The position numbers and the translations under genes are program-made. Below are positions 15,441-64,000 of a DNA stretch of 64,000 nt, piece by piece. The stretch's first letter is position 1. Each line of letters begins with the position of its first letter. Source of the stretch: Naegleria gruberi (Eukaryota); NCBI GenBank assembly GCA_000004985.1, contig GG738909.1. The stretch is one strand, 5' to 3'. The notes beneath the pieces were generated by a model. It saw only the letters and a program-made list of their open reading frames with translations. It had not been told where the DNA came from and did not search any database.

Positions 15441-15566
15441 AGGTAGGTAAATGTGAAATACTTTTATAATGAATGTGCTCGTCTCGTGGTGTAATGGTAG
15501 CATAGTGGACTTTGAATCCATTGACGGAGGTTCGATTCCTCCCGAGACGGTAAACGTGGCGAGCGT
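15441..15566 (+). repeat. Duplicated tRNA-Gln unit, copy 1 (gene plus conserved flanks).
   Basis: The 5' flank aggtag..aaatgtgaaatacttttataatgaatgtgctc and the 3' flank ggtaaacgtggcgagc match the second copy at 20481-20604 nearly exactly. Confidence 0.7.
15480..15550 (+). tRNA. tRNA-Gln (anticodon UUG).
   Basis: Manual cloverleaf: acceptor CGTCTCG/CGAGACG, D arm GTGT-AATGGTA-GCAT, anticodon arm GTGGA-CTTTGAA-TCCAT, 4-nt variable loop, T arm GGAGG-TTCGATT-CCTCC, discriminator G. 71 nt, with box A and box B present. Confidence 0.9.
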
Positions 15567-19838: not shown

Positions 19839-19919
19839 GCAGACTTGGCCGAGTGGTTAAGGCGACAGACTTGAAATCTGTTGGGGAAACCTTCGTAGGT
19901 TCGAATCCTGCAGTCTGCG
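19839..19919 (+). tRNA. tRNA-Ser (anticodon UGA).
   Basis: Acceptor GCAGACT/AGTCTGC, D arm GCCG-AGTGGTTAA-GGCG, anticodon arm ACAGA-CTTGAAA-TCTGT, long variable arm TGGGGAAACCTTCG (class II), T arm GCAGG-TTCGAATC-CTGC. 81 nt. Confidence 0.9.
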
Positions 19920-20480: not shown

Positions 20481-20604
20481 AGGTAGTGAAATGTGAAATA
20501 CTTTTATAATGAATGTGCTCGTCTCGTGGTGTAATGGTAGCATAGTGGACTTTGAATCCATTGACGGAGGTTCGATTCCTCCCGAGACGGTAACGTGGCG
20601 AGCC
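20481..20604 (+). repeat. Duplicated tRNA-Gln unit, copy 2.
   Basis: See copy 1. The gene body is identical. The 5' flank (33 nt or more) is identical. The 3' flank differs by a 1-nt indel (gtaacgtggcgagc). Confidence 0.7.
20520..20590 (+). tRNA. tRNA-Gln (anticodon UUG), second copy.
   Basis: Sequence identical to the 15480-15550 copy, with the same cloverleaf. Confidence 0.9.
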
Positions 20605-24690: not shown

Positions 24691-24761
24691 CTCGAGTGCC
24701 GGGAATTGAACCCGGGTCGCCAGAGTGACAGTCTGGAATGCTACCACTATACCACACCCGA
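24691..24761 (-). tRNA. tRNA-Asp (anticodon GUC).
   Basis: On the minus strand: TCGGGTG-TG-GTAT-AGTGGTA-GCAT-T-CCAGA-CTGTCAC-TCTGG-CGAC-CCGGG-TTCAATT-CCCGG-CACTCGA-G. This is a canonical 71-nt cloverleaf and resembles eukaryotic tRNA-Asp. Confidence 0.9.
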
Positions 24762-27163: not shown

Positions 27164-30026
27164 TTACAACTTAATGCTGCTTTCTGATATTGAAATAGGT
27201 TTAGCTAATTTTTGCAAAATTTCTTGGTGGTGTTTTTTTGTTGATACAACATACATCCCACCAGCTTTCAGCTCGTCTTTTTCACTTAATAAATCCATGG
27301 ACAATTCATCATAAATACAATCTACATTACTAAATTTTTGGCAAAAAGTCAGTATGTCCCCTTTGTTTCTTAGAGGAACTTTAAAGCTTTGTTTAAATTG
27401 TTCGCAATCGAATTGTATGGAAATGAATGACAACTTGTTCTTGTTGCACGTTTCTTCTGAAAATCTGTCCAAAATGTAGGAATAAATAATTTCAAAATCT
27501 GAACCAAAGTGTTTCGCATCTATCTCCATTGCCATTGATGGACTAGATTGGAATGCTTCTAGCTTGTGCTTCCAGTGAAAATCAAAGATTTTGGACTGGC
27601 TTTTGCTGACACATACCAAACAATCATCAACTCCCTCTATTAAGAGAGCCAAACTGGCAGCCATTATGTTCCATTCCTCCTCATACATTCTATCTTCTTC
27701 TACAATCAAAATAATGAGGTCATAAAAGGACAGTTTTACTTTCCTTGATGTGTCTGATATAACATCCACTGAACAAAGATCGCCAAGAGGTGATAATTGA
27801 ATGAAATTTACGAGTACTTCAGCAATATCATTTTCTGCATGAATTGCAATAGTGACTTTTTGTTTGGTAAGTTCCTTTCGGATTTCATTAAAGCGGCTTA
27901 TCATGGTAACAGCATTAGTATTCTTTTCATTTGCTTTCAAATGTAATGAATTTTTTTCAATCGTTTCTTCTATCAATCGGTAATTCACAATTTGTTGTTG
28001 AAATGGTGACAAATTTTCTTTTGTTAAATAGAATAATCTCTTGCAAAGATCAAGATATGATTGGATGGTGTGTGAATGTTTTTGAGAGATGGCTAGATTG
28101 ATATAACTTGAAGAACCAATTCCAACACACATGGTGGTAAGAATACTCTTTATGCTCAAGCCTTTTCCAATACTTTCGCTTGCACCTCTTAGTGAATTAC
28201 CTGCCCTTGGTATTGAACTTATTGAGAGATACTTATACAAATGGAAAGAACCGTAAGCTGCCACTCCCAATCCAACTAGGCCAATAATTCCATACAGTGC
28301 ATAGGAAAGCAGTGAGCTGTCTTCCGAGGAGGATATCTTTTGAATGAAATTATCTATTTTCATCAAAAGTGTACCTTTGTCAATATCAAAATCTTCATCT
28401 TGAAGAGTTGTGAAATCAATATCAAGCATCTTTTTTAGGTAATCCGAACTTAAGGAACTTTTTGACAATCTGCCAGTGTGAAGATGCTTCACAACCATAA
28501 ACAATAGGTTAACTGGATCCATACTGGAAACTACCACTTCTTGTTTACTATTTGGGCTAGGTCTAGCAAAGTATACTGCGAACACAAATGATGTTTTTCC
28601 AAACCAATAATTCACCTCAAACTGAATGCTTATACTGTCCTCAAGTTTTTCGTCTGATTTGATTGTAAAACATATATTATCAGAGTTAATTACTGGCGTT
28701 GAAATGGAGATATTGGTTTTAGAGCTGGTCATATTTAAAATTGTTTTGAAAATACCATTTCTATCTGAAATGTGGATTTTAAATGAACGATCTTTCATAT
28801 CTGAAACAAAATAAGTAGATTTACCTAATTGTTTCTCAATCATCTTGCTGTTTTCATTGATAGAAGCAATTCTTGTAAGGCAAGGTTCGATCTCACAAAT
28901 ATCAAACATCATACTTTTAACTTTTCTATGGTTGGGTGTTGATATTACAAAGAGGGAATGAAACGCATTGATGTAACTAATCATTTTACTCCTTTCTAAA
29001 AAGGTAGTATCAGTAATCTCACCTGTTGATGCACTAATCGCATCTACATTGAAAGAGACAATTTCACTAGTACTGAATGTATAGAATACTCCAATCTTTG
29101 AGTATGTTAACCATTCAATTATTTTGGTTGCTATTGTCGGGAAGTTTGACTTTAGCTTGGGAGTAGCCATTGTAACTAATTTCCAAAATAATCCAGAGAA
29201 AGTGAACAAATCATCGTTTACGTAATCTGAAATCTGTTTAAACGAGTCAACTAGAGTATCAAAAGTGGAAACTCCATCCACCAACAACTTTACAAAATTA
29301 ACTTGATCTACCTTGATAGGAGATGAGTGTTTGGTAGGTTTTTCAGAATAGTTTGCTATTTGTTGAAGTGCTAGTAAACAAGGTTGTACCAAATCTTTTT
29401 CGTAGAGAAACCATAGAAATTGTTTTGAGTATTTGGAAATTTCTTCCTTGACCACACTAGATGCAAAAAGTGGAGCTCCAAATCCCACACAATAGACATG
29501 TTCTTTCTTTTTAGGCTTTGAGTGGAGCACTCTAATAGCAGCCAATCCAGCTAGAGAACCTCCTGAATTAGTTATGTCATAATTTACATTGGAGGAGACA
29601 ACACTTACCAATTGAATGTCCGCAAAATACTACCTTGTAGCCTTTATCTAAATAATCAATGAAAAAATTCATTTGCATAGCACTTATTTTTGCACTAAAG
29701 CCTCTATGGTAAGATCCATTGCTTTCCTCCAAAGAGGTCGGAAAGCAATTTAAATTTGCCAAAATGTCTGAAACAGTTTCACTACCCTTGAATGCTACGT
29801 ACAAAATTTTGGGATCTGATGATTCAGCCATTAGAAAGGGGTGAATATTCATGTCAGTTGATTTAACAAGTTGATCAACTATTACATTGCAACCAGAATA
29901 ATTGCCAATATGTTCAACAGGGTCTTGTGAGTAACAACAATCAGAAAGTATGGCACATGTACTGATTATTTCTTTGCTAATATGAATGTCTTTAAGATGC
30001 TCATCAATGGTTTGTTGTTTGGACAT
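27164..30026 (-). CDS. Lipase class 3 (fungal-lipase-like alpha/beta hydrolase) domain protein, ~950 aa, two exons.
   Basis: Two track ORFs (29577-30026 and 27164-29611) join through a 46-nt intron with a GTAAGT donor (~29563-29608). The spliced product reads ...YHRGF...YKVVFCGHSIG|GSLAGLAAIRV, restoring the GHSxG nucleophile elbow. A large C-terminal extension of unknown function follows. Confidence 0.75.
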
Positions 30027-30139: not shown

Positions 30140-33100
30140 TTGCAAAAAAGAAAACAATACCAATTCCTTATTCTTGTTGTCTTCATTCTCATTCATTCAT
30201 ATGTCAAAAAAATGAAACCAATCACTTTGTGGTTGATTTGTGCATTTCTCATTTCTATTGTTCATGGTTCTCTCAAGATTTATAATGGGGAACCAGTAAA
30301 TGAACACATTCCTTTCATTGTGAGTTTAAAGATACCAAATGATTTGTGTGGAGGAAGTATTTTGAATGAACGCTTTATTCTTACCGCTGCCCATTGTTTT
30401 TGGTTTGCCAAAGAATGTGAAGATATTATAGTGGGTGCTGGTTCTAATATTCTGGACGCTCCATTACAACAAAGAAAAACACCTTTTCATAGGGATCAGT
30501 ATGTGCCACCTACATTCGATGCGAAAGGAAAATGTTTATTCTCCGATCTAAGAATTGTTGATCTTGGAGCTGGTAATGAATTAATATTTGACGGTACAGT
30601 TTCACCAGCTTTATTAGACACTAATGGTCCCACTGTGGGTGCGAGCGTTACTTTTGCTGGATGGGGTATTAGAAATGAAAACTCTCCTCATTCACAAAAA
30701 CTGTTCAAAACAACAGAGATTATTCAAGATTATAAGACTTGCCCTATTACTGATGAAAATTTTTTGCATTGTACACCAAATGAAAGTAGTGGTCAATTTT
30801 GTGCATGGAACGAAAAAAGTATTTCTTGTCCAGGTGATTCTGGAAGTCCAGTATTTTATGTAGCTAATGACAAGTCCAAAATAGTTACTGGTGTGGTTAG
30901 TGCTACCACTGCTTATGAAAAGAAAACATGTTTGCAACCTGGCCAGAAGGATTTACACACATCAGTAGCAAAACACACTAATTGGATAATAGAATATACA
31001 AATCAAAATACGTTATGTAAGTTTTCCAAATGTTACTTTGACTATATATATTTAAAAGATGGGTGGGGAAGAATGGATGACCACTTTTTATTCTGGAGAG
31101 AAAACCCTTCACAAGACGATTCCTTAACCAATCCAAAGATTATTAAGATGAATCCCTCTGAAGGTGTGATGCCAATATTGAGAAAACTGAGACCAACAAA
31201 AGGAAAGTTTGCACTTGGTATCTCCGCTTCAAATAGACTATATTTATGGGGTAGAGGAAACCAATATCAATTAGGAAATGGGAAGAATTCTGACATTCTC
31301 CATCCAACTGTTCATAATTTTGTTCTAGAAAATATTTTAGATGCATGTGGGGGTTATTCACATTCACTAGCCCTTAGTACTGATGGTAAGGTTTATGAAT
31401 GGGGAACACTCGCCGACGCTATTAAGAAGACACCAACTGTAGTTGTTTTTCCCAATAATGACAAAATCAAAAGTATATCCTGTGGCCACAGTCACAATCT
31501 TGCAGTTTCACAAGATATGAAAAGATTGTATTTTTGGGGTAAAAATCAATATGGAGAGGGAGGGAATATTAAGGGTGCCTGTGCATCAAATCCTAAAGCA
31601 TTCATCGAGCGTCCAATCCTTATCTCAATCGATAATAATGATTTTACCATTATTAGTATTTGTGCAGGAGATTCAACCAGTTATGAAGTAACATCAAAGG
31701 GACATGTTTATTCTTGGGGTTATAATGAACAATCTCTTCTAGGAACAGGTATTTCTAGTATTTGTATTGGAATACCAACAAAAATATCTGTGGAAAATGC
31801 AGAAAGAATGTATTGTGGTGATCAAATGTGTTTTGTAAAAGCTGTTAACAATGTGTACGGATGGGGAATTAACAAGTTTAATGAGATAGATGAATCTGGA
31901 CTTCCAATTATAAGCCCCATCATTACAAACATTGAAAGCGCGTCTGATATTACGATTGGAAATGATTTTGTTTTATACAAAATATCTGATAGTTGGTATG
32001 GCAAAGGAAATAATTATATGGTATCGGGTCCTTCTAACTTTAACAAAGGAGTTGATATTGAATGCACAAACTATTATTGCTTTGTTTTTGGTCAATCAGT
32101 GAAACTGAGAATTGATGTAACAGTTTGTTATTTTGTTTCATTAGCATTGAATATCATATTTTTTTGTTTAGGCTTAATATGTATCAAGAAAAGGTCAACG
32201 AAAATGAGATTATATACACCTTGTGTTTTTCCATTTTTAATGTTATGTTTGAGAATTTATCAAATTTATTTCAAGTTCAAATATAATCAAAATTATGGAC
32301 TGTTTGAGTCTGGTTTAGGTGACTATGAAATTTTATTGATTTTATTCTCATTATACACTCCTGTAGTATTAAGAAACAGTATTTTAGTCAATTTAACTGA
32401 ATATCTTGAAAAAGTGGTAAACAGATTTACCATTAGGCTTTGGAAAATATTTACCTCAGAGTTGTTATTTATTGGGTTTATATTATTGGCCTTCTTTGGA
32501 ATGGCATGTCCGATTTTTCTCAACCTCAAAGATAGACGTATTGTTATTATTGCTATTATAATTTTTTTTTTTATTATGAATATTTTATTGCAATATGTAA
32601 TACCTTTTATTCAATTTTGTTTGCATATTAAGAGGAGAAAATCAATTATCAACTTTTTTGATTTTGATGATCCGCTCCACTTAAGAAAGGAGTATTTGAG
32701 TGCCTTTTTGACTGTTGTGGTTAACCTATCTTTTGGATTTATTCTGACACCCTTCAGCGTTATCTGGCAGGTTAATGTTATTGTTCTACAACCAATTTTT
32801 TTTATTTTCTCAATGGGAGGATTAGCTTGTGCGATAGAGTTTATTAATAATTTCAGGAAAATATCAAATGCTTCATTGAATGAAGTGCTCATCATTCCAC
32901 GTTTGTTTGAATTGTTGAAGCAATATGCAAAAAGAGAGCTGACTTTTGAAAATGTCGTTTTACATGAAAAGATACAGGAAATAAGAGAAATGGTGGACGA
33001 AAGAGAAGTTTTTGAAAAGCTAAAAGAGGTCAATCGAGATTTTTTCTCAACATTTTCAAAATATGAGGTTTCAATCTCGAAAAATTCTAAAACAAATTTG

Positions 33101-33319
33101 AAGAAATGGTTCGGGGAGATAGGCGTGATAGAGGATTCAAAGATAGTCCAATGGAGCAAAGAGAGTCTTTTAGAAACAGCAGCAACAAGACGAAATTCAA
33201 GAGTATTATTTTATTTTACCTCCACATTCACCTCTATCATTGAAAAGGACATACAAAGCAACTTGGGTGCTACGTTAGAACGATTAAAACACACACGAGA
33301 GTTTAAGATGAAAGTTTAA
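30140..33319 (+). CDS. Multidomain receptor-like protein: signal peptide, trypsin-like serine protease domain, RCC1-like repeats, 7-TM region, C-terminal RGS-like domain.
   Basis: The likely start is MKPITLWLICAFLISIVHG, a signal peptide. Protease hallmarks: CGGSILNERFILTAAHCF (His), DLRIVDL (candidate Asp), CPGDSGSPVF (Ser). RCC1-type repeats: LYLWGRGNQYQLGNG, VYEWGTL, LYFWGKNQYGEGG, VYSWGYNEQSLLGTG, VYGWGINKF. Seven hydrophobic helices lie between VCYFVSLALNIIFFCLGLICI and VIVLQPIFFIFSMGGLACAIEFI. The tail RLFELLKQYAKRELTFENVVLHEKIQE...EVNRDFFSTFSKYEVSI fits an RGS-box pattern. Confidence 0.7.
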   Translation: MQKRKQYQFLILVVFILIHSYVKKMKPITLWLICAFLISIVHGSLKIYNGEPVNEHIPFIVSLKIPNDLCGGSILNERFILTAAHCFWFAKECEDIIVGAGSNILDAPLQQRKTPFHRDQYVPPTFDAKGKCLFSDLRIVDLGAGNELIFDGTVSPALLDTNGPTVGASVTFAGWGIRNENSPHSQKLFKTTEIIQDYKTCPITDENFLHCTPNESSGQFCAWNEKSISCPGDSGSPVFYVANDKSKIVTGVVSATTAYEKKTCLQPGQKDLHTSVAKHTNWIIEYTNQNTLCKFSKCYFDYIYLKDGWGRMDDHFLFWRENPSQDDSLTNPKIIKMNPSEGVMPILRKLRPTKGKFALGISASNRLYLWGRGNQYQLGNGKNSDILHPTVHNFVLENILDACGGYSHSLALSTDGKVYEWGTLADAIKKTPTVVVFPNNDKIKSISCGHSHNLAVSQDMKRLYFWGKNQYGEGGNIKGACASNPKAFIERPILISIDNNDFTIISICAGDSTSYEVTSKGHVYSWGYNEQSLLGTGISSICIGIPTKISVENAERMYCGDQMCFVKAVNNVYGWGINKFNEIDESGLPIISPIITNIESASDITIGNDFVLYKISDSWYGKGNNYMVSGPSNFNKGVDIECTNYYCFVFGQSVKLRIDVTVCYFVSLALNIIFFCLGLICIKKRSTKMRLYTPCVFPFLMLCLRIYQIYFKFKYNQNYGLFESGLGDYEILLILFSLYTPVVLRNSILVNLTEYLEKVVNRFTIRLWKIFTSELLFIGFILLAFFGMACPIFLNLKDRRIVIIAIIIFFFIMNILLQYVIPFIQFCLHIKRRKSIINFFDFDDPLHLRKEYLSAFLTVVVNLSFGFILTPFSVIWQVNVIVLQPIFFIFSMGGLACAIEFINNFRKISNASLNEVLIIPRLFELLKQYAKRELTFENVVLHEKIQEIREMVDEREVFEKLKEVNRDFFSTFSKYEVSISKNSKTNLKKWFGEIGVIEDSKIVQWSKESLLETAATRRNSRVLFYFTSTFTSIIEKDIQSNLGATLERLKHTREFKMKV

Positions 33320-33337: not shown

Positions 33338-34639
33338 TTATTTATTTGCCTTTCCTATAATTTCTGTAAACTTTTTAAACATTGTTACAACCTCAATGTC
33401 ATGATTATATTTCAAGAAGGCTGATGGATTCATAGCAATTTCATTAATTGCATTTACAAGTCTTGGATTTTGAAATCCTCTCATTAAATATTCATCTCCA
33501 GAAACAAGTTTCATTACATGTGGATTGACAAAGTTTGGGACATGTCCAGATGTGGAAGCACTACCATTATTAGAACTGTTACTATTGGTTGGTTTAGAAG
33601 AACTATTTGAACTAGTGGAAGATGATGTTGTAGAAGATTTTTGAGTTGTTTGTGAATAGGTTGTGCTTGATTGTTGTTGTTGGGGTGGAGTACTTTGTTT
33701 AGTAGTAGCTGTATTAGAAGTAGTAGTAGTTGGGTTTTCCTCCTTCTTTTCCACACTTCTGATATCATTAATTTGATCAATTAATTTATCAACCTTATCC
33801 ATATTAGAAATATCACTATTTAACTGTTTAAACATTTCCAAATCCTTCTTTGCCAAATCAACCTTCCCAAGAGCTAATAAAGCTTTTCCTCTCAAATTGT
33901 AAGCTTTTCCAGCATCTGGATTGAGTTTAATTGCTTGATCACAATCTCTCCTCACACTCAATGGTTTGTTCATCATTGCTAAACATTCAGCTCTCTTAAT
34001 AAATGTCATTGCAGATTCTCCATTTGAACATTCAATTGCTTTTCCATAATAAATTGCAGCTAATTGATATTCATTCTTTTTGAAAAGGTCATTTCCTTTC
34101 TTTGTACATTCATTGGCCACTTTCATATCCTTTTCCTTTACATTTGATGTTGAATCTGACATGTTCATTATACTCATATATTTTGAATCACTGTTTGTGA
34201 GTACAGTCTCCTTTTCAGGTTCAATTATTTTCTCCTTAGTTGCTGTTGGTTCAGAAATGAGAGGAATCTTTGGTGAGTTAGAAGTTTCCTCTACATAACC
34301 ATTATTAATTGCCGTAGACTCTCTAACATTGGTCATTTCCTTCATTACATTCTTTTCCTCAACTGGAGGTTTGTTCTCCTTTTTATCATTAGTGACTTGT
34401 TGATCATCAATTTCCAAAATCAGTGATTTAGTTTTTACTTCCTTAATTAAAAATCCTTCAGGTTCCTCTTCTTCTTGTAGTTCCTCTTTGAATTGTTCTT
34501 GTTCCGATGATGAATTAATTATTGTTGATGATGAAGGTGATGATACATTATTTACAAAAGGAGTTGAAACGAATTTGGTTGCTCCACAATCATTAATCAG
34601 AAAATCCTTAAAGAAAGCTAACTCTTCACTATCATCCAA
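33338..34639 (-). CDS. Hsc70-interacting protein (Hip/ST13-like) with TPR repeats and a C-terminal STI1/DP domain.
   Basis: TPR repeats: GNDLFKKNEYQLAAIYYGKAIE...RAECLAMMNKPLSVRRDCDQAIKLNPDAGKAYNLRGKALLALGK. A central charged/T,S,Q-rich region follows. The C-terminus GFQNPRLVNAINEIAMNPSAFLKYNHDIEVVTMFKKF matches the Hip STI1 (DP) module. Confidence 0.7.
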   Translation of the reverse strand: MDDSEELAFFKDFLINDCGATKFVSTPFVNNVSSPSSSTIINSSSEQEQFKEELQEEEEPEGFLIKEVKTKSLILEIDDQQVTNDKKENKPPVEEKNVMKEMTNVRESTAINNGYVEETSNSPKIPLISEPTATKEKIIEPEKETVLTNSDSKYMSIMNMSDSTSNVKEKDMKVANECTKKGNDLFKKNEYQLAAIYYGKAIECSNGESAMTFIKRAECLAMMNKPLSVRRDCDQAIKLNPDAGKAYNLRGKALLALGKVDLAKKDLEMFKQLNSDISNMDKVDKLIDQINDIRSVEKKEENPTTTTSNTATTKQSTPPQQQQSSTTYSQTTQKSSTTSSSTSSNSSSKPTNSNSSNNGSASTSGHVPNFVNPHVMKLVSGDEYLMRGFQNPRLVNAINEIAMNPSAFLKYNHDIEVVTMFKKFTEIIGKANK

Positions 34640-35011: not shown

Positions 35012-36526
35012 ATGAGTGATAGTAATAATAGTCATCATCATCGTAGTAGTAGTGAAAAGAGATCATACCATCATGATGGTGGTTATAATAATTATGGAAA
35101 TTCAAGAAGTGGATCATCATCATATAGGAGACGAAATTACAAGAAACAAAAATATCAAAACTACTCCGATTCTTCTTCTTACACAAATAATAGTACAAAT
35201 TCATCATCTAATGATGATAATAATGGATCATCTAATAACAATACTAATACATCATCATCATCATATTCAACAGGAGGAGGAAACTATTATAATAATGAAA
35301 ATTATATTTCAAAATATCCATTTGCCATACGGAATGTAACAGATTATATTAATCAACTATCATCTTCAAATACATCATCATCATCAGATAATTTAAATAC
35401 CACCAATGATAATAATAATAATAATACTACCACCTCCTCTTCCACCAATAATAATAATTTAGATAATAATTTAAATAATAATTTAAATAATAATAATTTA
35501 GATAATAATAATTTAGATAATAATTTAAATAATTCAAGTCAAAATGTAATTAGAAATTATTTTTCCAATTCTAAGAAGTATCGTAAAATTCCCAAAGGTT
35601 GGCCACAAGTAACACCCTTATTTGGAGAATTAATACCCAATACTAAATTTATTCCACTTAAATGTCCATTAAGTCCACAATATTTTAAATATCCAAATAA
35701 TTCATCCATTTCATTAATACAAGAACATTTTAATACCAAATATGAACAAGATATTGGATTAATAATTGATTTATGTTGTGTTGAATTTTATAAAAAGAAT
35801 GATTTACCTTTAAATATGAAATATTTATCATATTATATGAATATTCATGATTTAAATAAGAATTTAAATGTAAAATTATTTACAGAACAAATGGATACAA
35901 TTGTAAATGATATTGATTTATATATTTCTAATAATCCTACTAAATATATTTTAATTCATTGTACACATGGTTTAAATAGAACTGGTTTTGTAATTTGTTA
36001 TTATTTATTAAAAAAGAAAATTATTGAAAATGTTGAACAAGCAATTGAAATATTTAAAATTCATAGAATGACACGTACTGGTTTATATAATCCTTTTTTT
36101 ATTGATTTACTTTTTGAAATGTTTGATCAAACTAATTCTGAAATGTATCAATTAATGAAATATCCAGATCCAATTCAACATTCACGTAAATCTATTAGAA
36201 AGGAATTTTATAAACCATGGTTAAAAAGAAATAATCATTTAGAATGTTTTAAACATTATCATATTTTAAAATCAATTAATTTATTAAATAAGAATGATAA
36301 TAAGGATGATAAGGATGATAAGGATAGGAATGATAATAGAGATGATAATAGAGATGATAATAATGATAATAATGATAATGAAGAAGGAACGAAGAAGAAT
36401 ATTTCAAAAACAGATAATGATGATTCAAGTACAAGATTATCAGATGATTTAGATTCACTTAACAGTGATAAGGAAGAAGAAGAAGATTTGGAAGAAATTG
36501 ATGATGAGGAAATGACAAGAAAATAG
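35012..36526 (+). CDS. RNA/RNP 5'-phosphatase of the capping-enzyme triphosphatase / DUSP11 (PIR1)-like Cys-phosphatase family.
   Basis: The catalytic P-loop ILIHCTHGLNRTGFVICYYLL matches Mce1/DUSP11 HCTHG(F/L)NRTG. The N-terminus is S/N/H-rich. The C-terminus has acidic (DKDD/NRDD)n repeats. No guanylyltransferase domain is present. Confidence 0.7.
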   Translation: MSDSNNSHHHRSSSEKRSYHHDGGYNNYGNSRSGSSSYRRRNYKKQKYQNYSDSSSYTNNSTNSSSNDDNNGSSNNNTNTSSSSYSTGGGNYYNNENYISKYPFAIRNVTDYINQLSSSNTSSSSDNLNTTNDNNNNNTTTSSSTNNNNLDNNLNNNLNNNNLDNNNLDNNLNNSSQNVIRNYFSNSKKYRKIPKGWPQVTPLFGELIPNTKFIPLKCPLSPQYFKYPNNSSISLIQEHFNTKYEQDIGLIIDLCCVEFYKKNDLPLNMKYLSYYMNIHDLNKNLNVKLFTEQMDTIVNDIDLYISNNPTKYILIHCTHGLNRTGFVICYYLLKKKIIENVEQAIEIFKIHRMTRTGLYNPFFIDLLFEMFDQTNSEMYQLMKYPDPIQHSRKSIRKEFYKPWLKRNNHLECFKHYHILKSINLLNKNDNKDDKDDKDRNDNRDDNRDDNNDNNDNEEGTKKNISKTDNDDSSTRLSDDLDSLNSDKEEEEDLEEIDDEEMTRK

Positions 36527-36667: not shown

Positions 36668-37699
36668 TTAAATATTTAAATTTGTTGGAAGTATATAATC
36701 TCCACTGTATCCTTCTTCACCTGTTCCTGCTGTTATTGTAATTATTTCATTATTTAAATCTATCATTTTAATTTGATGATTATCAGTATCAGCAATATAT
36801 AATATATTATTAATTGTTACAAAACAACCAAGTGGTGAATTTAATTCTTTGACCACTGCTGTATTAATTAATCCTGTTTTTAAATCAATTTTTCTAATTG
36901 AATTATTATCTCTATCTGCAATATATAAATTATTATTATTATCAAAACAAATATAAGCAGGGTAATTGAGTAAATTGTTAAAAGCATGATGATCATATTC
37001 ATTATTACCATTCTTACCATCAATACCTGCAACTTTCCATAATTTACCATTTTTATCAATCTTTCTTATGGTATGATTAGAAAATTCTGAAAAGTATAAT
37101 TCATCATCTTTTGATATTGCAATTCCATATGGACAGTTAATTTGTGAATTTAAGGCTAATGAACCATTTTCACTTTCTCCACTTGAACCATTTCCTACAA
37201 TAGTTTCTATTAAACCATTATCATCATCATCATTTAATGAAACTTTTCTAATTGCATGATTATCTCTATCAGCAATATATAAATAATTTCCATCATTTGA
37301 TAAACATATTCCACGTGGTGAATTTAAAAAAGAATTAATTGCTAAATTACCATCACCTACAAGTCCATAATCTCCACATCCAACAATGGTTGATATTATT
37401 CCATTATTATCAATTTTTCTAATTCTATTATTTCCCAAATCTGAGAAATATACATTTCCATTCCTATGATTAACAATAACACATACAGGTTTATTAATTG
37501 TAGCTTGTGTTGCCTTAATATTATCACCATTAAATCCTGCTTCACCTGTACCTGCAATAGTAATAATATTACCATTAATTATTTTTCTAATACAATGATT
37601 TTCTGTATCAGCAATATATACCTCATCACACTGATTCATATCTTGCTCACTATGAACAAAAACACTGAAAGGACGATTTAACTTTGCCTTAGTAGCCAT
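36668..37699 (-). CDS. NHL-repeat beta-propeller protein.
   Basis: Six repeats of the form Y(I/F)AD.DN..IRKI: YIADTENHCIRKI, YFSDLGNNRIRKI, YIADRDNHAIRKV, YFSEFSNHTIRKI, YIADRDNNSIRKI, YIADTDNHQIKMI. Confidence 0.75.
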   Translation of the reverse strand: MATKAKLNRPFSVFVHSEQDMNQCDEVYIADTENHCIRKIINGNIITIAGTGEAGFNGDNIKATQATINKPVCVIVNHRNGNVYFSDLGNNRIRKIDNNGIISTIVGCGDYGLVGDGNLAINSFLNSPRGICLSNDGNYLYIADRDNHAIRKVSLNDDDDNGLIETIVGNGSSGESENGSLALNSQINCPYGIAISKDDELYFSEFSNHTIRKIDKNGKLWKVAGIDGKNGNNEYDHHAFNNLLNYPAYICFDNNNNLYIADRDNNSIRKIDLKTGLINTAVVKELNSPLGCFVTINNILYIADTDNHQIKMIDLNNEIITITAGTGEEGYSGDYILPTNLNI

Positions 37700-39910: not shown

Positions 39911-42900
39911 GTGAAAAAGATGACTAGAGGTAGACCTAAAAAAGTTAAACAAGTTGTCATTGAACCTGAAGAACATTCAGATGAAGAAATGACTGATCAA
40001 CAACAACAACAACAAACATCAACAATTCCATCATCATCTTCAGTTGCTACTAGTAGTACACCACCTACTGAAGAAGTTAATGTTTCTAATGATGATCAAA
40101 AAAAGGAAAATGACAACAAGAAGGAAAATACTAGTGTTAAATCAGAGAGACCTACTAGAAAATCTAAAGAAACTGCTAAGCGTATTATCCATAAAGCAAT
40201 TAAACCTAAGGACAAATCTGCTACTACTACCACCACTTCTACTAGTGATGCTGAGGAAGAAGAACATGATGAAAAGGAGGAGGAAAAGGAAGAAAAGGAT
40301 GATGAAGAAGAAGAAGAACCAAAATATGCTCCTCGTGTTTCTATTGCAACACAAAAGAGAAAGGCCAAATTAGAAAAACTTTCAAAGAAGAGAGGTAAAA
40401 AAGTTGAACTTTCAGCTGAAGAGGAAGAATCTGAAGAATCTGAAAGTGAAAGTGATAATGATGATAAAAAGAAAAAGAAGAAGAAAGCTGCCACTAAAAA
40501 GAAGGAAAAAAAGCCAAAGAAGGAAACTAAAAAATCCACCACTTCCAAAAAGAAGAAGAAGAAAAAGGATGATGATGATGAAGATCTTCATACTTCTGAA
40601 GGTGATAGTGAACAAGAAAAGAAGAAGAAGAAGAGAAAGACTTCCAAATCATCATCATCAACTAAAACTAAAAAGCCTAAAAAGATTAAACCTGGCATGT
40701 GTCAATTAGATGATGATATATTGAAAGCTATTAAGAAATGTAATGATGATCCATTTATTGATACATCAAATGAATTGAATACATTTGTTTCACCTGTTAG
40801 AACTAGTAAGGAAGGTTTTCGTGCATTACAAACAAATAATTATGAATTGTTAAAGAAGGTATTACAAGATGAAAAACATGTTAATAATCCATTCATTCAA
40901 AGATCAATTGATAATGATTGGAATATAATTGATTATGCTATACGTTCAAATGATATTAAGGCATTAGATTTAATATTTGATGAAATTAATAGTACTACAG
41001 GTATTTCTCGTTCACGTGTTTCACAATCACATTCAATTCAAACAATTGAAACTGGATTTGCATCAAAGAGAACTTATGGACGTGCAGTTAGAAATGTTAA
41101 TGTTTCACGTGGTGGACGTGAAGGTATTGATGTTGCATTTGCTAAAGATTCAGAAGATTATTCAACTTTTAATTCATATAATAGTTACGCATTAATACAA
41201 GATGCTATTAAGAGAAGTGTTACATGTAGAGATGTTAAAATTGAAACTATTGATTATTTAATTGTAAAGAAGGGATTATCTACATTTGGTGAAGATGTTT
41301 TTTATGCTGCTATTGAATCTGGTAATGTTCCAATTGCATTACATTTAGCAAAGAAATTGAATGAACAAGATGGATTTGGTTTAAATCATTTACATGTTGA
41401 AAGTTTAGAAAAAGATGGTTCATCTGATTTTACTTCCTATAAGAGTGTTTCAATTACAAAGAAGGCAATTGCTAATGATGTTACACCTGTTCATTGTTCT
41501 GCTTTAAATCCAAATACAAAATATTTAAAGGAATTAGTTGAAGGTAATTCAGATGGATGTGCTGTTCTTGATAGATATCAGAGAAGACCAATTCATTTTG
41601 CTGCCTGTTCTTCTACAAGTGATAATATCAAATATTTATTAGAGAAGGGTTCAAATATTATTGAAAAGGATTCTCAAAAAAGAACACCACTTCATTATGC
41701 TGCTAAATATGGTCATTCACAAAATATTGAAATTCTATGTCCAAAAGATTCCAAGAATGGTAGTATTAAGGATAAATTTGGATATTCACCATTACATTTA
41801 GCAGCATGGTATAATCAAATTGATGTTTGTAAAAAATTAATTGAATGTGGTACAAATGTTGATTTAGCAGCTAAATTAAAAGAAACACCACTCATGTCAG
41901 CTTGTAAAAGAGGTAATTTAGAATTAATGAAAGTATTAATTGAAAAGGGTGCTAAAATTGAAAAATTATGTACCAGAAAGAAATCATTATTAATGTATGC
42001 AGCTATGAATGGATATTATGATATTGTAAAATATTTATTAGAAAAGGGAATGGATCCAAATCATAAGGATTCAGCTGGTAATTCTGTTATTCATTATGCA
42101 GTTGCTTATGGTTGGTTTGAAATTGTTAAATTACTTTTAGTTGCAGGTGCTGATTTACATGCATTAAATTCATGGAAATATTCACCATTGAATATTGCAA
42201 TGTTAAAATCACATTATGGTATAACTGAATTTATTTTAAATGATAAATTAGTTGATTTAAATTTAAAAGATTCAGAAGGTTATACATTAATTCATAAATT
42301 AATGTCAAAATTAGATGAACAAAATTTTAATCAAATTAAATATTTGATAAAAGAAAAGAAGGATAGAATTGATTTAACTATTAAGGGACCAAATGATACT
42401 TCTCTATTCCATTATATTACAGGTTATCAATCTAAATATGATATTGAATTAGCTAAATTATTTATTGAATCTAAATTACATTATGATGATATTGATGCAA
42501 ATGGTATTACACCACTCATGAAGGCATTTAATCATTCAAATATTAAAATGATTAAATTCCTATTAGAACAAGGTTCAAAAGTTAGATGTCAAAAACATGA
42601 AGAAAATATTTTACATTTGGTTTTAAAACAAGTTCATCAAAGAGATTTAAATAGATTATTTATGGTTATTTATGATAATATGGTTACTAATAAGAAGATT
42701 TATTCTAATAATATTAATAATATTAATAATACAAATAATACAACTAGTAGTAGTAGTATTGGTAGTAGTGGTGGTGGTAGTATGATAGATGAAGATGAAG
42801 ATCATCTCAATACATCTACCATTTCCAATGTACAATCTATCAATGATAATAATGATAATATTACAGATTCTGAACAATTATTCTATAAAATGGCTAATAC

Positions 42901-45900
42901 TATTGATGGATCAGGTAAAACACCATTAATGGCCATGATTCATGCATTCACTCCTTCAAATTATTCACAACAACATGAACTTGCTGAAGATTCAGATGGT
43001 GAAGCAACACCATTCCCTGTCTCTGCTAAAACAATTCAAGAATCTGTTTTTGATAACATTTTTGATGTGAGTGAACCAGAAAAGAAGAAGAAATTTACAA
43101 AGAAGAAGAAGGATATTTTAATGAGAAAATCAAATAATGATTCAGATGAAGAAATGGAAGATCATGAAGATGAAGATGATGATGAAGAAGATATTTCAGA
43201 TGAAGAACATTCTGAAACAAGTAAACTTGATGATTCAACAATGGTTGATAAATCAATGATGGAAGATGATGAAAGTATTCATTCACATTCATCAGCATCT
43301 TCAGATGATGAAGAAGAAGCAGCAGAACATGAATCAGCAATGATTAATGATTCATTCATTGATGATTCTGAAGCTACTCCTTCTAAATCTAAGAAGGCTT
43401 TATTTAAATCTATTCTTACAACTACAATGGAAGAAGATGAAGAAGAAGTAACAACAAGTACTCCACTTCTACTCCTGGTATATTTGGTGCAACATTCCCA
43501 ACTAGTAGAGCATCAGCAGTAGCATCATCATCTTCTTCAACAACAACAGAAGCAACAGCATCAGCAACAGTTGAAGATTTAGATTCAGATGGTGAACCAT
43601 ATGAAATTGATTATTATGGTAATAAGAGAAAGAAGAGAGAAATTCCAACATCACAATCTGTTGATAGATTTTTAGAATTCCTCGACAAGTATCTTTCATT
43701 AACTAAAACATCACTTAAAAATGCAGTAATTGAACATATTCCATACAAATCAAAAGTTAAAGTTAAAGATGTTCATACAGGTAAAATGAGAGTTAAATCA
43801 TATCCAAATAATGAATGTATTGGATATACACCAATGCACTATGCAATTGCAAGACAATCAGATCAATTAATCAAAGCATTTGTTTCAAAATATAGATTAA
43901 ATGTTAATGCTAAAGATTTCAAAGGTATTACACCACTTCATTTAGCTGTTTCTGCAACAAGTCAAAATGAAGGAATGATTCATGCAGTTAAATATTTATT
44001 GAAATATGGTGCTGAATTGAATGTTAAAGATTCAATTGGTAGAAGTCCATTCTTTTATTCATTTACAAATATTCAATATAATCCTATTTCAAGTGGTGGT
44101 AATTCTTATAATTACAATTATAATAGTAGATATAATAATACAAGTAGTAATGATCCAATTGAATTAGTATCAGATATGTGTAATTTTGAAGGTATTGAAA
44201 CTGATATTACAGATAAATATGGACGTTCACCATTACATTATGCTGCTATTAGTGGTGCAACTATAAGTAGTATTTTCCTAATTCAAAGAGGTGCAGAATT
44301 GAATCGTAAAGATGAAGATGGTAATACTCCAACTAATTTAGCATTATTATCTTCACGTGTTGATTTTGTTGTTACTTTAATTAATAAGGGAGGTGATGTT
44401 CATGCTCCAATTTATGATCAATTATCAATTAATATTAAATCTATTAGACAACAATTGAGAGAACAATTACAAGCTGAAAAGGTTCAATCAATCAAAAAAT
44501 CTAAACATGTTATTGGTGCATCAACAGTTAAAGATTCAGATGATGAAGATGATGAAGATGAAGAATCTGAAGTTGAAGAATCTGATGAAGATTCATATGA
44601 TTCAGATGATTCAAATTATAATTCTAAACCAATGAAATCATCCACATCTGAATCAATTGAAGAAGAACCAATTGAAATTTCACAAGAAGAACAAGTTTCA
44701 ATTTATGAACAAGTTAAAAATAAGCAATTAGATTCATGTACAATGTTTAAATATGCACTTTCTAGATCTTATATGGGATTAGCTTATTTAATTATGCAAG
44801 AACCTAATATTAAACCAACACAAGTAATTTCAGATGCTTTAGAAACACATCAATATAGTCTAGTACAAAAATTAATTAGAAAGACACGTAATGATTTATT
44901 ATTGAATGATTTAAATTCAGATGGTCAAAATGTTATGCATTTAGTTGCAAAGAATTCAGATTCATCACGTGAATGGAAAGATACATGGGCTATTACTATT
45001 ACTAAAATGTTATTACGTCGTTCTTTAAATTTGAATTTAACTGATAAAGTTAAAGGAAGAACACCACTCCATTATGCTTCAATTAATTCAAATGCAGAAT
45101 TAGTTTCATTATTATTGAAACATGGTGCCTCTCCAAATACATTAGATTCAAAATATAAGAGATCTGCACTACATTATGCATGTAAAAATGGTACTGATAC
45201 AACTCATATGAAATATAGATCATCCTATTCATCTTCAACATCTTCAACAGATGCAATTTATTCAATTATTGAATCATTAATTGGATCTAATGCTAATATT
45301 GATATTCAAGAAGGTAAATATGGTAGAACAGCACTTCATTTCTCTGTTTTAAATAGAGATAAATTAGCAGTTAAAGTATTAATAACACATGGTGTTAATA
45401 CTAATGTTAAAGATAGACATTTAAATAGAACACCATTACATTATGCTACTATTGAAAATATAACAGAAATTGTTAAAGTTTTATTAACATCACCTACTAT
45501 TAATGTTAATATTGAAGATAATGATAAGAGAATTGCATTACATTATGCTATTGGTATTAATTTATTTGGTTATATTCAAAATATTGAAATTGTAAAGGAA
45601 TTAGTTAAATCTAAATCTGATATTTTACATCAAGATTTAAATGGTAAATCACCACTTTATTATTCTTTAAGACAAACTAATGGTACCTATACTAAAATAT
45701 TACAACCTAATGAAAGTAAAATTGATGAAAAATTAAGAGAATCTTCACAATCTGAAATTAAATCATTAATTGAATATATGAATACATTTACAATTCCACA
45801 TATAAATGTAAATGTTGAAAAGGATGCTTCACAAGCACTTGAAGATTTTGAAAAGGAAGAATTAACTAGACCTGAAACTGAAGAAGAAAAGAAGGAAAGA

Positions 45901-59946: not shown

Positions 59947-59998
59947 ATAAAAATGTTATTAGACTTTATGTTTTGAAATATTTTTAATTTTTTGAATC

Positions 59999-62900
59999 NN
60001 NNNNNNNNNNNNNNNNNNNNNNNNNNNNNNNNNNNNNNNNNNNNNNNNNNNNNNNNNNNNNNNNNNNNNNNNNNNNNNNNNNNNNNNNNNNNNNNNNNNN
60101 NNNNNNNNNNNNNNNNNNNNNNNNNNNNNNNNNNNNNNNNNNNNNNNNNNNNNNNNNNNNNNNNNNNNNNNNNNNNNNNNNNNNNNNNNNNNNNNNNNNN
60201 NNNNNNNNNNNNNNNNNNNNNNNNNNNNNNNNNNNNNNNNNNNNNNNNNNNNNNNNNNNNNNNNNNNNNNNNNNNNNNNNNNNNNNNNNNNNNNNNNNNN
60301 NNNNNNNNNNNNNNNNNNNNNNNNNNNNNNNNNNNNNNNNNNNNNNNNNNNNNNNNNNNNNNNNNNNNNNNNNNNNNNNNNNNNNNNNNNNNNNNNNNNN
60401 NNNNNNNNNNNNNNNNNNNNNNNNNNNNNNNNNNNNNNNNNNNNNNNNNNNNNNNNNNNNNNNNNNNNNNNNNNNNNNNNNNNNNNNNNNNNNNNNNNNN
60501 NNNNNNNNNNNNNNNNNNNNNNNNNNNNNNNNNNNNNNNNNNNNNNNNNNNNNNNNNNNNNNNNNNNNNNNNNNNNNNNNNNNNNNNNNNNNNNNNNNNN
60601 NNNNNNNNNNNNNNNNNNNNNNNNNNNNNNNNNNNNNNNNNNNNNNNNNNNNNNNNNNNNNNNNNNNNNNNNNNNNNNNNNNNNNNNNNNNNNNNNNNNN
60701 NNNNNNNNNNNNNNNNNNNNNNNNNNNNNNNNNNNNNNNNNNNNNNNNNNNNNNNNNNNNNNNNNNNNNNNNNNNNNNNNNNNNNNNNNNNNNNNNNNNN
60801 NNNNNNNNNNNNNNNNNNNNNNNNNNNNNNNNNNNNNNNNNNNNNNNNNNNNNNNNNNNNNNNNNNNNNNNNNNNNNNNNNNNNNNNNNNNNNNNNNNNN
60901 NNNNNNNNNNNNNNNNNNNNNNNNNNNNNNNNNNNNNNNNNNNNNNNNNNNNNNNNNNNNNNNNNNNNNNNNNNNNNNNNNNNNNNNNNNNNNNNNNNNN
61001 NNNNNNNNNNNNNNNNNNNNNNNNNNNNNNNNNNNNNNNNNNNNNNNNNNNNNNNNNNNNNNNNNNNNNNNNNNNNNNNNNNNNNNNNNNNNNNNNNNNN
61101 NNNNNNNNNNNNNNNNNNNNNNNNNNNNNNNNNNNNNNNNNNNNNNNNNNNNNNNNNNNNNNNNNNNNNNNNNNNNNNNNNNNNNNNNNNNNNNNNNNNN
61201 NNNNNNNNNNNNNNNNNNNNNNNNNNNNNNNNNNNNNNNNNNNNNNNNNNNNNNNNNNNNNNNNNNNNNNNNNNNNNNNNNNNNNNNNNNNNNNNNNNNN
61301 NNNNNNNNNNNNNNNNNNNNNNNNNNNNNNNNNNNNNNNNNNNNNNNNNNNNNNNNNNNNNNNNNNNNNNNNNNNNNNNNNNNNNNNNNNNNNNNNNNNN
61401 NNNNNNNNNNNNNNNNNNNNNNNNNNNNNNNNNNNNNNNNNNNNNNNNNNNNNNNNNNNNNNNNNNNNNNNNNNNNNNNNNNNNNNNNNNNNNNNNNNNN
61501 NNNNNNNNNNNNNNNNNNNNNNNNNNNNNNNNNNNNNNNNNNNNNNNNNNNNNNNNNNNNNNNNNNNNNNNNNNNNNNNNNNNNNNNNNNNNNNNNNNNN
61601 NNNNNNNNNNNNNNNNNNNNNNNNNNNNNNNNNNNNNNNNNNNNNNNNNNNNNNNNNNNNNNNNNNNNNNNNNNNNNNNNNNNNNNNNNNNNNNNNNNNN
61701 NNNNNNNNNNNNNNNNNNNNNNNNNNNNNNNNNNNNNNNNNNNNNNNNNNNNNNNNNNNNNNNNNNNNNNNNNNNNNNNNNNNNNNNNNNNNNNNNNNNN
61801 NNNNNNNNNNNNNNNNNNNNNNNNNNNNNNNNNNNNNNNNNNNNNNNNNNNNNNNNNNNNNNNNNNNNNNNNNNNNNNNNNNNNNNNNNNNNNNNNNNNN
61901 NNNNNNNNNNNNNNNNNNNNNNNNNNNNNNNNNNNNNNNNNNNNNNNNNNNNNNNNNNNNNNNNNNNNNNNNNNNNNNNNNNNNNNNNNNNNNNNNNNNN
62001 NNNNNNNNNNNNNNNNNNNNNNNNNNNNNNNNNNNNNNNNNNNNNNNNNNNNNNNNNNNNNNNNNNNNNNNNNNNNNNNNNNNNNNNNNNNNNNNNNNNN
62101 NNNNNNNNNNNNNNNNNNNNNNNNNNNNNNNNNNNNNNNNNNNNNNNNNNNNNNNNNNNNNNNNNNNNNNNNNNNNNNNNNNNNNNNNNNNNNNNNNNNN
62201 NNNNNNNNNNNNNNNNNNNNNNNNNNNNNNNNNNNNNNNNNNNNNNNNNNNNNNNNNNNNNNNNNNNNNNNNNNNNNNNNNNNNNNNNNNNNNNNNNNNN
62301 NNNNNNNNNNNNNNNNNNNNNNNNNNNNNNNNNNNNNNNNNNNNNNNNNNNNNNNNNNNNNNNNNNNNNNNNNNNNNNNNNNNNNNNNNNNNNNNNNNNN
62401 NNNNNNNNNNNNNNNNNNNNNNNNNNNNNNNNNNNNNNNNNNNNNNNNNNNNNNNNNNNNNNNNNNNNNNNNNNNNNNNNNNNNNNNNNNNNNNNNNNNN
62501 NNNNNNNNNNNNNNNNNNNNNNNNNNNNNNNNNNNNNNNNNNNNNNNNNNNNNNNNNNNNNNNNNNNNNNNNNNNNNNNNNNNNNNNNNNNNNNNNNNNN
62601 NNNNNNNNNNNNNNNNNNNNNNNNNNNNNNNNNNNNNNNNNNNNNNNNNNNNNNNNNNNNNNNNNNNNNNNNNNNNNNNNNNNNNNNNNNNNNNNNNNNN
62701 NNNNNNNNNNNNNNNNNNNNNNNNNNNNNNNNNNNNNNNNNNNNNNNNNNNNNNNNNNNNNNNNNNNNNNNNNNNNNNNNNNNNNNNNNNNNNNNNNNNN
62801 NNNNNNNNNNNNNNNNNNNNNNNNNNNNNNNNNNNNNNNNNNNNNNNNNNNNNNNNNNNNNNNNNNNNNNNNNNNNNNNNNNNNNNNNNNNNNNNNNNNN

Positions 62901-63072
62901 NNNNNNNNNNNNNNNNNNNNNNNNNNNNNNNNNNNNNNNNNNNNNNNNNNNNNNNNNNNNNNNNNNNNNNNNNNNNNNNNNNNNNNNNNNNNNNNNNNNN
63001 NNNNNNNNNNNNNNNNNNNNNNNNNNNNNNNNNNNNNNNNNNNNNNNNNNNNNNNNNNNNNNNNNNNNNNNN
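59999..63072. other. Assembly gap: 3074 N.
   Basis: Uninterrupted run of n characters. The X-only ORF 59992-63078 in the track is an artefact of this gap. Confidence 0.99.
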
Positions 63073-64000
63073 CTCTAATGCCAGGTGATATACTAGTAAT
63101 TAAAATTATTAGAGGAGAGGATTTAATAATAGCAGATGCTAATGGTAAAAGGTAATTATAATACCTATATTTACTAATATCATTATTTACTTTACAATAT
63201 TATTATAACTATTATTATTACAACTATCTATACAACACAATATATAATAATACAATATAACTATCACACAATTTTATAAAATAACGTAATAAAGTGATCC
63301 CTATACAATAATAGATTTTAAACAAAGATTAAAAGATTTTAAATTGAGTTCATTTAGACATTTAGTTGAAGTTTCAAATGAAAAAGTTTTACCTGGTGGT
63401 TTAGTTGGTGGTTTTTTAAGAACTACAACTCAAATGAAAACTGTATGTTTTTTTTTAGTATTATTTATTTATTTTATATTTATTTGTATTCAATTATTTA
63501 TATTTATTTATTTTATATTTATATTTAAATAGTTAAATCCAATATGGAATGATGAATTTCAATTTGAAATATTAAATGAAATGGATAATTTATTAATACA
63601 TTTTTATGTTTATGATTGGGATAGATTAACTAAAGATGATCGTATGTATATATATTATTTAAATATTTTATTAAAATTATATTATTAAATATTATATTAT
63701 TAAATATTATATTAAACATTATTAAATAATTAAATATATATGATAATAGCAATGGGTGATGTAATATTTACATTAACAAAAGAAGATTTATATTTTCTAG
63801 TAAATAAACCAAGAGAATATAAATTAAATTTACAAAATGTAGAAACAGGTAATATTATATTTGAAATTACAATTTTAGAAGGTCCATTAAGATTAAAATC
63901 ACTTTCACTTCAAAGTTATAATTCATTTCTTAAACATGCTCCAAGAGGTACATTATCAAATACTAAATTATCAGGTTTAAATATTTCTAATAATAGTAAT
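63073..64000 (+). CDS. C2-domain protein, copy 2 (partial at both ends). Near-identical tandem paralog of 58157-59946.
   Basis: After the gap the sequence resumes inside exon 1 (MPGDILVIKIIRGEDLIIADANGK). It repeats exons 2-4 of copy 1 with the same intron positions. Introns differ only by small AT indels, and there is a 2-nt difference at the exon 1 start (ctctaatgccaggtgat vs ctcatgccaggagat). Confidence 0.55.

Follow-up and report, generated by a model that had tools for sequence, protein, structure and literature searches.

Seven-transmembrane (7TM) proteins that end in a regulator of G-protein signaling (RGS) domain have been reported from plants (AtRGS1) and from many protists (PMC3386157, PMC3971589). 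In Naegleria gruberi, 229 proteins with an RGS domain have been reported, along with about 44 G-alpha subunits (PMC3971589, PMC8584482). Bosch et al. (2022) have reported 28 7TM-RGS proteins in Naegleria fowleri, many with "complex extracellular N termini" that include EGF-like repeats, lectin-type domains and GPS motifs, and, among the four that they studied (Nf 7TM RGS1-4), the isolated RGS domains of three (Nf 7TM RGS2-4) acted as GTPase-activating proteins (GAPs) on several N. fowleri G-alpha subunits, self-activating ones included (PMC9283941). The main text and available supplements of that paper contain no mention of a trypsin, peptidase or RCC1 ectodomain. The present analysis concerns one N. 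gruberi gene, at the locus annotated as NAEGRDRAFT_74003, within a window of 64,000 nucleotides (nt) of contig GG738909.1 (assembly GCA_000004985.1). This gene probably encodes a type-I-oriented 7TM-RGS receptor whose ectodomain consists of a serine protease followed by an RCC1-like beta-propeller. The 7TM-RGS class, its presence in Naegleria and its biochemical mode of action are known already. The predicted protease-plus-propeller ectodomain is new, and the searches found it nowhere else.

The gene was first described in a sequence-only reading, which stated that 7TM-RGS proteins are established in plants and that the architecture of this one was not a familiar one. AtRGS1 agrees with the first statement, but the class is not confined to plants and forms a large family in Naegleria. 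The second statement holds for the combination of protease and propeller and not for the general plan, as 7TM-RGS proteins with complex ectodomains are known in this genus (PMC9283941).

Reading Frame and Gene Structure

The plus strand is open from 30140 to 33319, a length of 1059 codons when counted from a TTG, and closes with a TAA stop at 33317–33319. The longest open frames in shuffled copies of the window (n = 20) were 93–143 codons, so a frame of 1059 codons is not a chance event. The G+C content of the open reading frame (ORF) is about 31–35%. The program that listed the ORFs used bacterial start codons, hence the TTG at 30140, which was rejected as implausible in a eukaryote, the source being N. 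gruberi. The first in-frame ATG, at 30212, opens MKPITLWLICAFLISIVHG, a typical signal peptide, and the public N. gruberi gene model begins at the same methionine. Because the organism is eukaryotic and a typical signal peptide follows, translation most likely starts at this ATG, with the 24 codons before it serving as 5' leader. The product from this start has 1035 residues before splicing.

A segment of 42 nt near the beginning of the propeller (31017–31058) has the form GTAAGT...AAAAG and is probably an intron. GTAAGT occurs once in the ORF, inside this segment, and eight times on the same strand of the whole window. Excision of the segment changes "TLCKFSKCYFDYIYLKDGWG" into "TLYGWG", a standard RCC1 blade motif, and raises the score of the propeller against the WD40_RLD profile from 134.7 to 142.6 bits. 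Clear introns, 44, 46 and 48 nt long, begin at three further GTAAGT sites of the window, and their splicing restores long frames. With the segment removed, the mature protein would probably have 1021 residues, and the four-module architecture is the same with or without it. The single uninterrupted ORF of 1059 codons that had been described is thus continuous as a frame, but its start has moved to the ATG and it is probably interrupted by one short intron.

The best database match of the product is NAEGRDRAFT_74003 itself (XP_002671020.1, UniProt D2VXY5), an N. gruberi "predicted protein" of 669 residues. It is identical to the ORF in all aligned blocks, lacks first 14 and then 51 residues, and ends after ORF residue 722. 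When the alignment breaks are read from the DNA, the model contains three introns. The first is the in-frame segment of 42 nt discussed above. The second, of 153 nt (GTTTGT...CAAG), takes away the first two transmembrane helices (TM1 and TM2) together with the KKRSTKMR loop between them. The third, of about 600 nt, extends from just past TM3 to the middle of the RGS box, from where the model continues for 12 codons in a wrong frame (RNKRNGGRKRSF) up to a stop. The second and third modeled introns were rejected on two grounds. Both can be read through in frame, for 51 and about 200 codons of AT-rich sequence, and their translations include helices and an RGS segment with conserved counterparts in other proteins. 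Judged from the DNA, the public entry is mis-modeled, its receptor half being spliced away and its end read out of frame. Because it lacks the receptor half, protein databases do not show the fusion. The corrected gene model therefore bears on surveys of RGS and G-protein-coupled receptor (GPCR) architectures built on predicted proteomes, from which the fusion was hidden.

Protease and Propeller of the Ectodomain

The first module behind the signal peptide matches the Pfam Trypsin family (PF00089) with 79.5 bits (4e-22). Its best solved relative is the secreted protease VesB of Vibrio cholerae (2e-16), followed by granzymes, factor D, factor IX and trypsins; 286 PDB sequences matched at E<=1e-5. 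The catalytic triad is present in order, with His61 in TAAHC (30392–30394), Asp112 (30545–30547) and Ser210 in GDSGSP (30839–30841), and in the alignments all three residues coincide with the catalytic ones of VesB and granzyme M. In addition, Asp209 (the equivalent of Asp194) and cysteines at the conserved disulfide positions of the family are retained. An AlphaFold2 (AF2) model built from 17 aligned sequences gave a predicted local distance difference test score (pLDDT) of 75–92 for the protease, and Foldseek matched it to trypsin-like proteases with TM-scores of 0.8–0.84. These results agree with the signal peptide and the chymotrypsin-fold domain with ordered His and Ser motifs claimed in the sequence-only reading.

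In the S1 family the N-terminal IVGG inserts into the activation pocket, and IYNG is its counterpart here. It is plausible that a short propeptide would be cut after Lys22, between SLK and IYNG, as in the activation of a zymogen. The base of the S1 pocket (equivalent of chymotrypsin position 189) is occupied by Ile204, where VesB has Asp, so trypsin-like specificity is not expected from the sequence, and Ile204 would favor hydrophobic residues at P1. Long loop insertions are also present relative to trypsins. The chance that the protease is active may be put at about even.

The protease is followed by an RCC1-like propeller, which matched Pfam RCC1 (PF00415) at 3.6e-25 in four stretches, RCC1_2 at 4e-18 and WD40_RLD (PF25390) at 8e-44, with 150.8 bits against a cut-off of 150. 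The blade motifs number seven, namely YGWG (after splicing), LYLWG, VYEWG, LYFWG, VYSWG, VYGWG and WYGKG. Five or more WG repeats had been reported, in line with the present count of six "WG" and one "YGKG". The central blades were modeled by AF2 with pLDDT 80–94, and Foldseek matched them to the RCC1-like domains of UVR8, RPGR and HERC2 at about 1e-19. The seven blades may close into a ring, yet the outermost blades, first and last, are poorly modeled (pLDDT <50).

Membrane Core and RGS Box

Hydropathy analysis placed seven hydrophobic segments within residues 638–875, and TM1 begins about 15 residues or less past the propeller. AF2 modeling of the C-terminal 409 residues gave seven long helices followed by a helical bundle. 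When the N terminus is placed outside, the cytosolic loops and tail contain 17 lysine and arginine residues and the outer loops 7, as expected from the positive-inside rule. The RGS box was assigned to the cytosol because this count agrees with the signal peptide. The predictions thus support the seven helices proposed earlier and fit a topology with the N terminus outside and the C terminus inside, in which the ectodomain would face the exterior and the RGS box the cytosol.

The C-terminal segment had been recognized from an RGS-box pattern. Against the Pfam RGS profile (PF00615), the whole protein scored 20.6 bits, below the cut-off of 23.9, and the isolated tail scored 24.9 bits over model positions 2–81, just above it. 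The best PDB sequence match of the tail is RGS10 (3.5e-4). When a profile of aligned RGS regions that included this one was run against PDB sequences, its 35 matches were RGS proteins without exception, the best at an E-value of 9.5e-11. Foldseek was run with the modeled RGS region (pLDDT 75–84), and all 50 of the 50 matches listed were RGS or RGS-homology domains. A long insert ahead of the last RGS helices is poorly modeled. Homologs and predicted structure together secure the identity of the RGS box, for which Pfam alone is marginal. The contact motifs "FEN" (E913 and N914) and Arg1024 are kept. In the numbering of the complex of RGS4 with Gi-alpha1, we take the FEN pair to be Glu87-Asn88, Arg1024 to be Arg167, Ser953 to be Asn128 and Ala1020 to be Asp163. 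The odds that the RGS box is an active GAP would lie at or slightly above even.

Relatives of the Receptor Half

Relatives were sought with the C-terminal 409 residues as a phmmer query, run exhaustively against 1.84 billion protein representatives. Eight proteins only were matched, the truncated public model among them. Five of the other seven exceed the Pfam RGS cut-off (range of the seven 21.1–43.7 bits), and the top one spans model positions 3–116. The Naegleria proteins matched were the truncated model, NAEGRDRAFT_58957 and C9374_009793 of Naegleria lovaniensis. NAEGRDRAFT_58957 (XP_002673658.1, D2VQQ5) is an N. gruberi protein of 710 residues annotated as "RGS domain-containing protein", and it shares 28% identity with the 7TM-RGS module over query residues 17–343, from TM1 into the RGS box (phmmer E 7e-10). 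Together with C9374_009793, of 801 residues, it is the closest full-length relative of this module. In both relatives a signal peptide precedes a Cys-rich ectodomain of about 300–400 residues with no Pfam match, which, unlike that of the present protein, is unrelated to trypsin or RCC1. Three subfamily invariants are shared by all of these proteins, namely Y..R...L.N at the cytosolic end of TM3, FDDP..R in the third cytosolic loop and GG in TM7. By sequence, the protein is a member of the NAEGRDRAFT_58957-type subfamily of Naegleria 7TM-RGS proteins, and it belongs to a lineage-specific expansion already known for ectodomain shuffling. The comparison suggests that the 7TM-RGS module may be a conserved, portable output cassette with exchangeable sensor domains.

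Two metagenomic contigs also carry the 7TM-RGS cassette (L002, 1–1895; L003, 1–1588), behind other N-terminal regions that differ from each other. The cassettes have an intron at or beside FDDP, and a prokaryote-style gene caller split each into two proteins. The sources of these contigs are uncultured Naegleria-like organisms.

No other protein among the 1.84 billion representatives joined the cassette to a protease or RCC1 domain. Scans of metagenome contigs with the C-terminal half and with a closer sub-alignment returned no relatives. No ortholog with the four-module architecture turned up among the representatives or the metagenome contigs scanned, so that conservation of the fusion is not demonstrable. 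Profiles of the module and of the RGS box alone, run against an index of 5.8 billion proteins, returned two or three metagenomic fragments; they missed members of their own alignment and were uninformative on family size.

Proposed Mode of Action and Alternative Explanations

The analysis establishes the reading frame and the identity and order of the four domains, together with the predicted topology and membership in a Naegleria 7TM-RGS subfamily. The four modules very probably form one polypeptide. A single gene is supported because no stop lies between the modules and because the ORF fills the gap between its neighbors, the upstream gene starting at 30026 and the downstream gene stopping 19 nt past the studied stop. 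Order, single frame and predicted N-out/C-in topology fit a 7TM-RGS receptor, as in the self-contained, G-protein-regulating receptor suggested by the sequence-only reading. We infer a single transcript, as well as protease activity, GAP activity and coupling between ectodomain and RGS box.

In the proposed mode of action, removal of the signal peptide would leave the S1 protease outside the cell, where the zymogen would probably be activated after Lys22. The RCC1-like propeller would follow, and the chain would then cross the membrane seven times to end in the cytosolic RGS box. If it works like AtRGS1 and its N. fowleri counterparts, this box would speed the hydrolysis of GTP by at least one of the many G-alpha subunits of Naegleria, and the amount of GAP activity that reaches the G protein would depend on events at the ectodomain. 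Candidate events are the binding of a ligand or prey protein to the propeller, occupancy of the protease by a substrate or inhibitor, and proteolytic cleavage or shedding. A direct coupling of protease activity to GAP output, in which occupancy or self-shedding would set the rate of G-protein deactivation, is a speculative proposal that we consider unlikely. If true, it would give a bacterivorous amoeba a route to sense prey-derived proteins or protease inhibitors.

Several points weigh against the single-receptor interpretation. The membrane core was modeled with low confidence (AF2 pLDDT 50–60), and TM2 is the weakest helix in hydrophobicity (mean Kyte-Doolittle value 1.33). In the RGS box, Ser953 replaces Asn and Ala1020 replaces Asp, at positions where every aligned relative has Asn and Asp, and the Asp-to-Ala change is a real caveat that may weigh on GAP strength. 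The receptor half of the gene is in no representative of the 1.84 billion beyond the truncated model, and no whole-protein ortholog was found in the N. fowleri and N. lovaniensis proteomes, in which it may be mis-modeled likewise. In addition, exact-product look-ups with the 1035-residue and 1059-residue products and with the public model returned no contigs and no transcript or protein record.

The substitutions in the RGS box bear on the possibility that, in a real fusion, either or both of the catalytic ends have degenerated, which would leave the ectodomain as a binding module or pseudo-protease, the RGS box as a scaffold without GAP activity, or both. The Ile at the base of the S1 pocket and the long loop insertions of the protease point in the same direction, as do the low Pfam RGS scores relative to those of the relatives, and no ortholog was found that could show purifying selection. 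Ser at the position of RGS4 Asn128 is, however, found naturally among mammalian RGS proteins that are active, in the GAIP/RGSZ group. The Glu-Asn pair of the alpha3-alpha4 loop and the equivalent of Arg167 are retained in the RGS box, and the protease keeps its His, Asp and Ser, the GDSG oxyanion motif, Asp209, the cysteines at disulfide positions and an Ile N terminus after Lys. Degeneration of this kind is judged improbable. A different role, that of a surface-anchored protease concerned mainly with digestion or prey processing, for which the 7TM-RGS half would be chiefly an anchor or trafficking signal, agrees with the bacterivorous habit of Naegleria, with secreted VesB as the best solved match and with a bacterial secreted protein of identical Trypsin-then-RCC1 order. 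An anchor needs one helix only, and the subfamily-invariant residues kept in the seven-helix core and RGS box argue for a function of their own, so this role is very unlikely.

The remaining alternatives divide the gene. The locus might yield two products, the protease-propeller being secreted or anchored and the 7TM-RGS protein being transcribed separately, from a promoter or start inside the gene. Internal transcription starts are compatible with the present data, and the wholly different ectodomains of the closest paralogs imply that the module can work with other N termini. Neither a stop codon nor an intergenic spacer separates the halves, however, so that any full-length mRNA would be translated through, and the distance from the propeller to TM1 is about 15 residues. 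In addition, a 7TM-RGS protein without signal peptide and ectodomain has no counterpart in the full-length relatives P0035 and P0038, which have large ectodomains. A two-product locus is thus given as little weight as the anchored digestive protease. The least probable alternative, which we regard as hardly credible, is that the 669-residue public model is correct and all three introns are removed, in which case the product would lack the RGS domain and be a protease-propeller that ends in a short hydrophobic tail. The model does stand in GenBank and UniProt, and its first intron looks genuine. Its second intron, however, encodes TM1, the KKRSTKMR loop and TM2 in frame, and its third encodes TM4–TM7 and the start of the RGS box, which are homologous to other proteins, and stays open for about 200 codons at a G+C content of about 31–35%. 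Moreover, the 12 out-of-frame codons at its end fall within the RGS box, and the clear introns of the window are 44–48 nt long and start with GTAAGT. A single gene for a protease-propeller 7TM-RGS receptor accordingly remains the probable explanation.

Table 1. Features of the protease-propeller 7TM-RGS gene, with positions in the window.
Feature	Position	Strand	Basis
Open frame as first reported	30140..33319	+	TTG to TAA; ORF listing and shuffles
Probable ATG start and signal peptide MKPITLWLICAFLISIVHG	30212..30268	+	Sequence, hydropathy, same Met in public model
Possible 3-residue propeptide SLK before IYNG	30269..30277	+	Sequence; alignment to trypsin-family chains; inference
S1 (chymotrypsin-fold) serine protease	30278..31015	+	Pfam Trypsin, PDB VesB alignment, AF2 and Foldseek
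Probable in-frame intron, 42 nt, GTAAGT...AAAAG	31017..31058	+	First intron of public model; sole GTAAGT in ORF
Seven-blade RCC1-like beta-propeller, extracellular by topology	31059..32089	+	Pfam, blade motifs, AF2, Foldseek
Seven-helix membrane core	32123..32836	+	Hydropathy, positive-inside count, AF2 helices, homology to NAEGRDRAFT_58957
TM1	32123-32185	+	
TM2	32210-32272	+	
TM3	32327-32389	+	
TM4	32447-32509	+	
TM5	32540-32602	+	
FDDP motif, third cytosolic loop, subfamily-invariant	32663..32674	+	Alignment of relatives
TM6	32702-32764	+	
TM7	32774-32836	+	
Cytosolic RGS box, long insert ahead of last helices	32867..33316	+	Homologs and structure

Neighboring Genes

Upstream of the receptor gene and divergent from it, two minus-strand frames (27164..29611 and 29577..30026) form one class-3 lipase-like gene with a GTAAGT...TTCAG intron of 46 nt at about 29558–29603. 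Splicing of this intron restores GHSIGGSLAG, and 185 nt separate the start codons of the two genes. At two other minus-strand GTAAGT sites, near 17973 and 19267, the flanking long frames join when 44 and 48 nt are removed. GTAAGT introns of 42–48 nt seem typical of this region. Downstream, a convergent gene on the minus strand (33338–34639) encodes a TPR-repeat protein with long Ser/Thr/Gln/Asn-rich tracts, its stop being 19 nt from that of the receptor gene, and the locus is compact. An antisense frame of 182 codons on the minus strand (32611–33159) lies within the RGS-coding region and is most likely a shadow ORF rather than a gene of its own, because it is wholly inside the conserved plus-strand coding region.

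Further genes occupy the rest of the window. Four tRNA genes form a loose group between 15479 and 24761, comprising Gln(TTG) at 15479–15551 and 20519–20591, Ser(TGA) at 19839–19919 and Asp(GTC) at 24691–24761. A dual-specificity phosphatase (35012–36526) and an NHL-repeat protein (36668–37699) are followed by two adjacent large ankyrin-repeat genes on the plus strand (39911–47541). The second of these (43786–47541) encodes ankyrin repeats together with WGR, PARP regulatory and PARP catalytic domains; ankyrin plus PARP recalls the tankyrases, and the WGR and regulatory domains are of the PARP1-3 type. Other genes encode a SNF2-family helicase (49308–52349), a GRF zinc-finger protein (52488–53600) and a RasGEF (53777–56767); these three genes, like those for the phosphatase and the NHL-repeat protein, are unrelated to the receptor gene. 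A run of 3074 N (59999–63072) marks an assembly gap, and the ORF listed at 59992..63078 is an artefact of translated Ns.

Comparison with Known Systems

Several described systems share part of the predicted architecture. AtRGS1 resembles the present protein in having seven transmembrane helices followed by a cytosolic RGS box, which deactivates a self-activating G-alpha subunit, and it serves as the functional model for the class (PMC3386157, PMC9283941). It was absent from the phmmer matches of the C-terminal 409 residues, and no similarity of the membrane core was detected in that search. AtRGS1 is also essentially without a folded ectodomain.

Membrane-linked and secreted proteases share the other end of the molecule. 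The type II transmembrane serine proteases, such as TMPRSS11D and matriptase, and VesB have a trypsin fold at or beyond the cell surface, as is predicted for the present protein, and the structural TM-scores are 0.8–0.84. They are, however, single-pass or secreted, carry no intracellular signaling domain and, in the type II enzymes, have the protease at the C terminus, whereas the protease studied here is N-terminal. A bacterial secreted protein (P0018, Logan contig SRR31616101_535530) shows the same Trypsin-then-RCC1 order behind a signal peptide. It has neither membrane core nor RGS box and lies in a bacterial gene neighborhood. A bacterial origin of the ectodomain was considered but rejected as not supportable, since this closest bacterial Trypsin-RCC1 protein is only 23% identical to the present one, which is too remote a match to make a case for gene transfer.

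Adhesion GPCRs and protease-activated receptors share the coupling of extracellular proteolysis to seven-helix signaling. In these systems it is the receptor that is cleaved, by GAIN autoproteolysis or by an external protease, with activation of G proteins as the output. In the present protein, by contrast, a complete protease is predicted within the receptor itself, and a GAP would be the output domain. We know of no other 7TM signaling protein with a complete protease, and if the interpretation is true, this would be the first to carry its own. Should an active protease be coupled to the GAP, the protein would also offer a simple, testable system for the question of how extracellular events regulate 7TM-RGS proteins, which it shares with AtRGS1 and the N. 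fowleri proteins.

The closest comparison is with the 7TM-RGS proteins of N. fowleri, a member of the same genus, which share the large extracellular N terminus, the seven transmembrane helices and the C-terminal RGS box. Their ectodomains, as described in the N. fowleri paper, include EGF-like, lectin-type and GPS modules, whereas that of the present protein consists of a protease and an RCC1 propeller. This ectodomain went unnoticed until now because the truncated gene model hid its fusion to the receptor. Overall, the comparison widens the ectodomain repertoire of Naegleria 7TM-RGS proteins from adhesion-type modules to a complete, apparently competent enzyme and a propeller.

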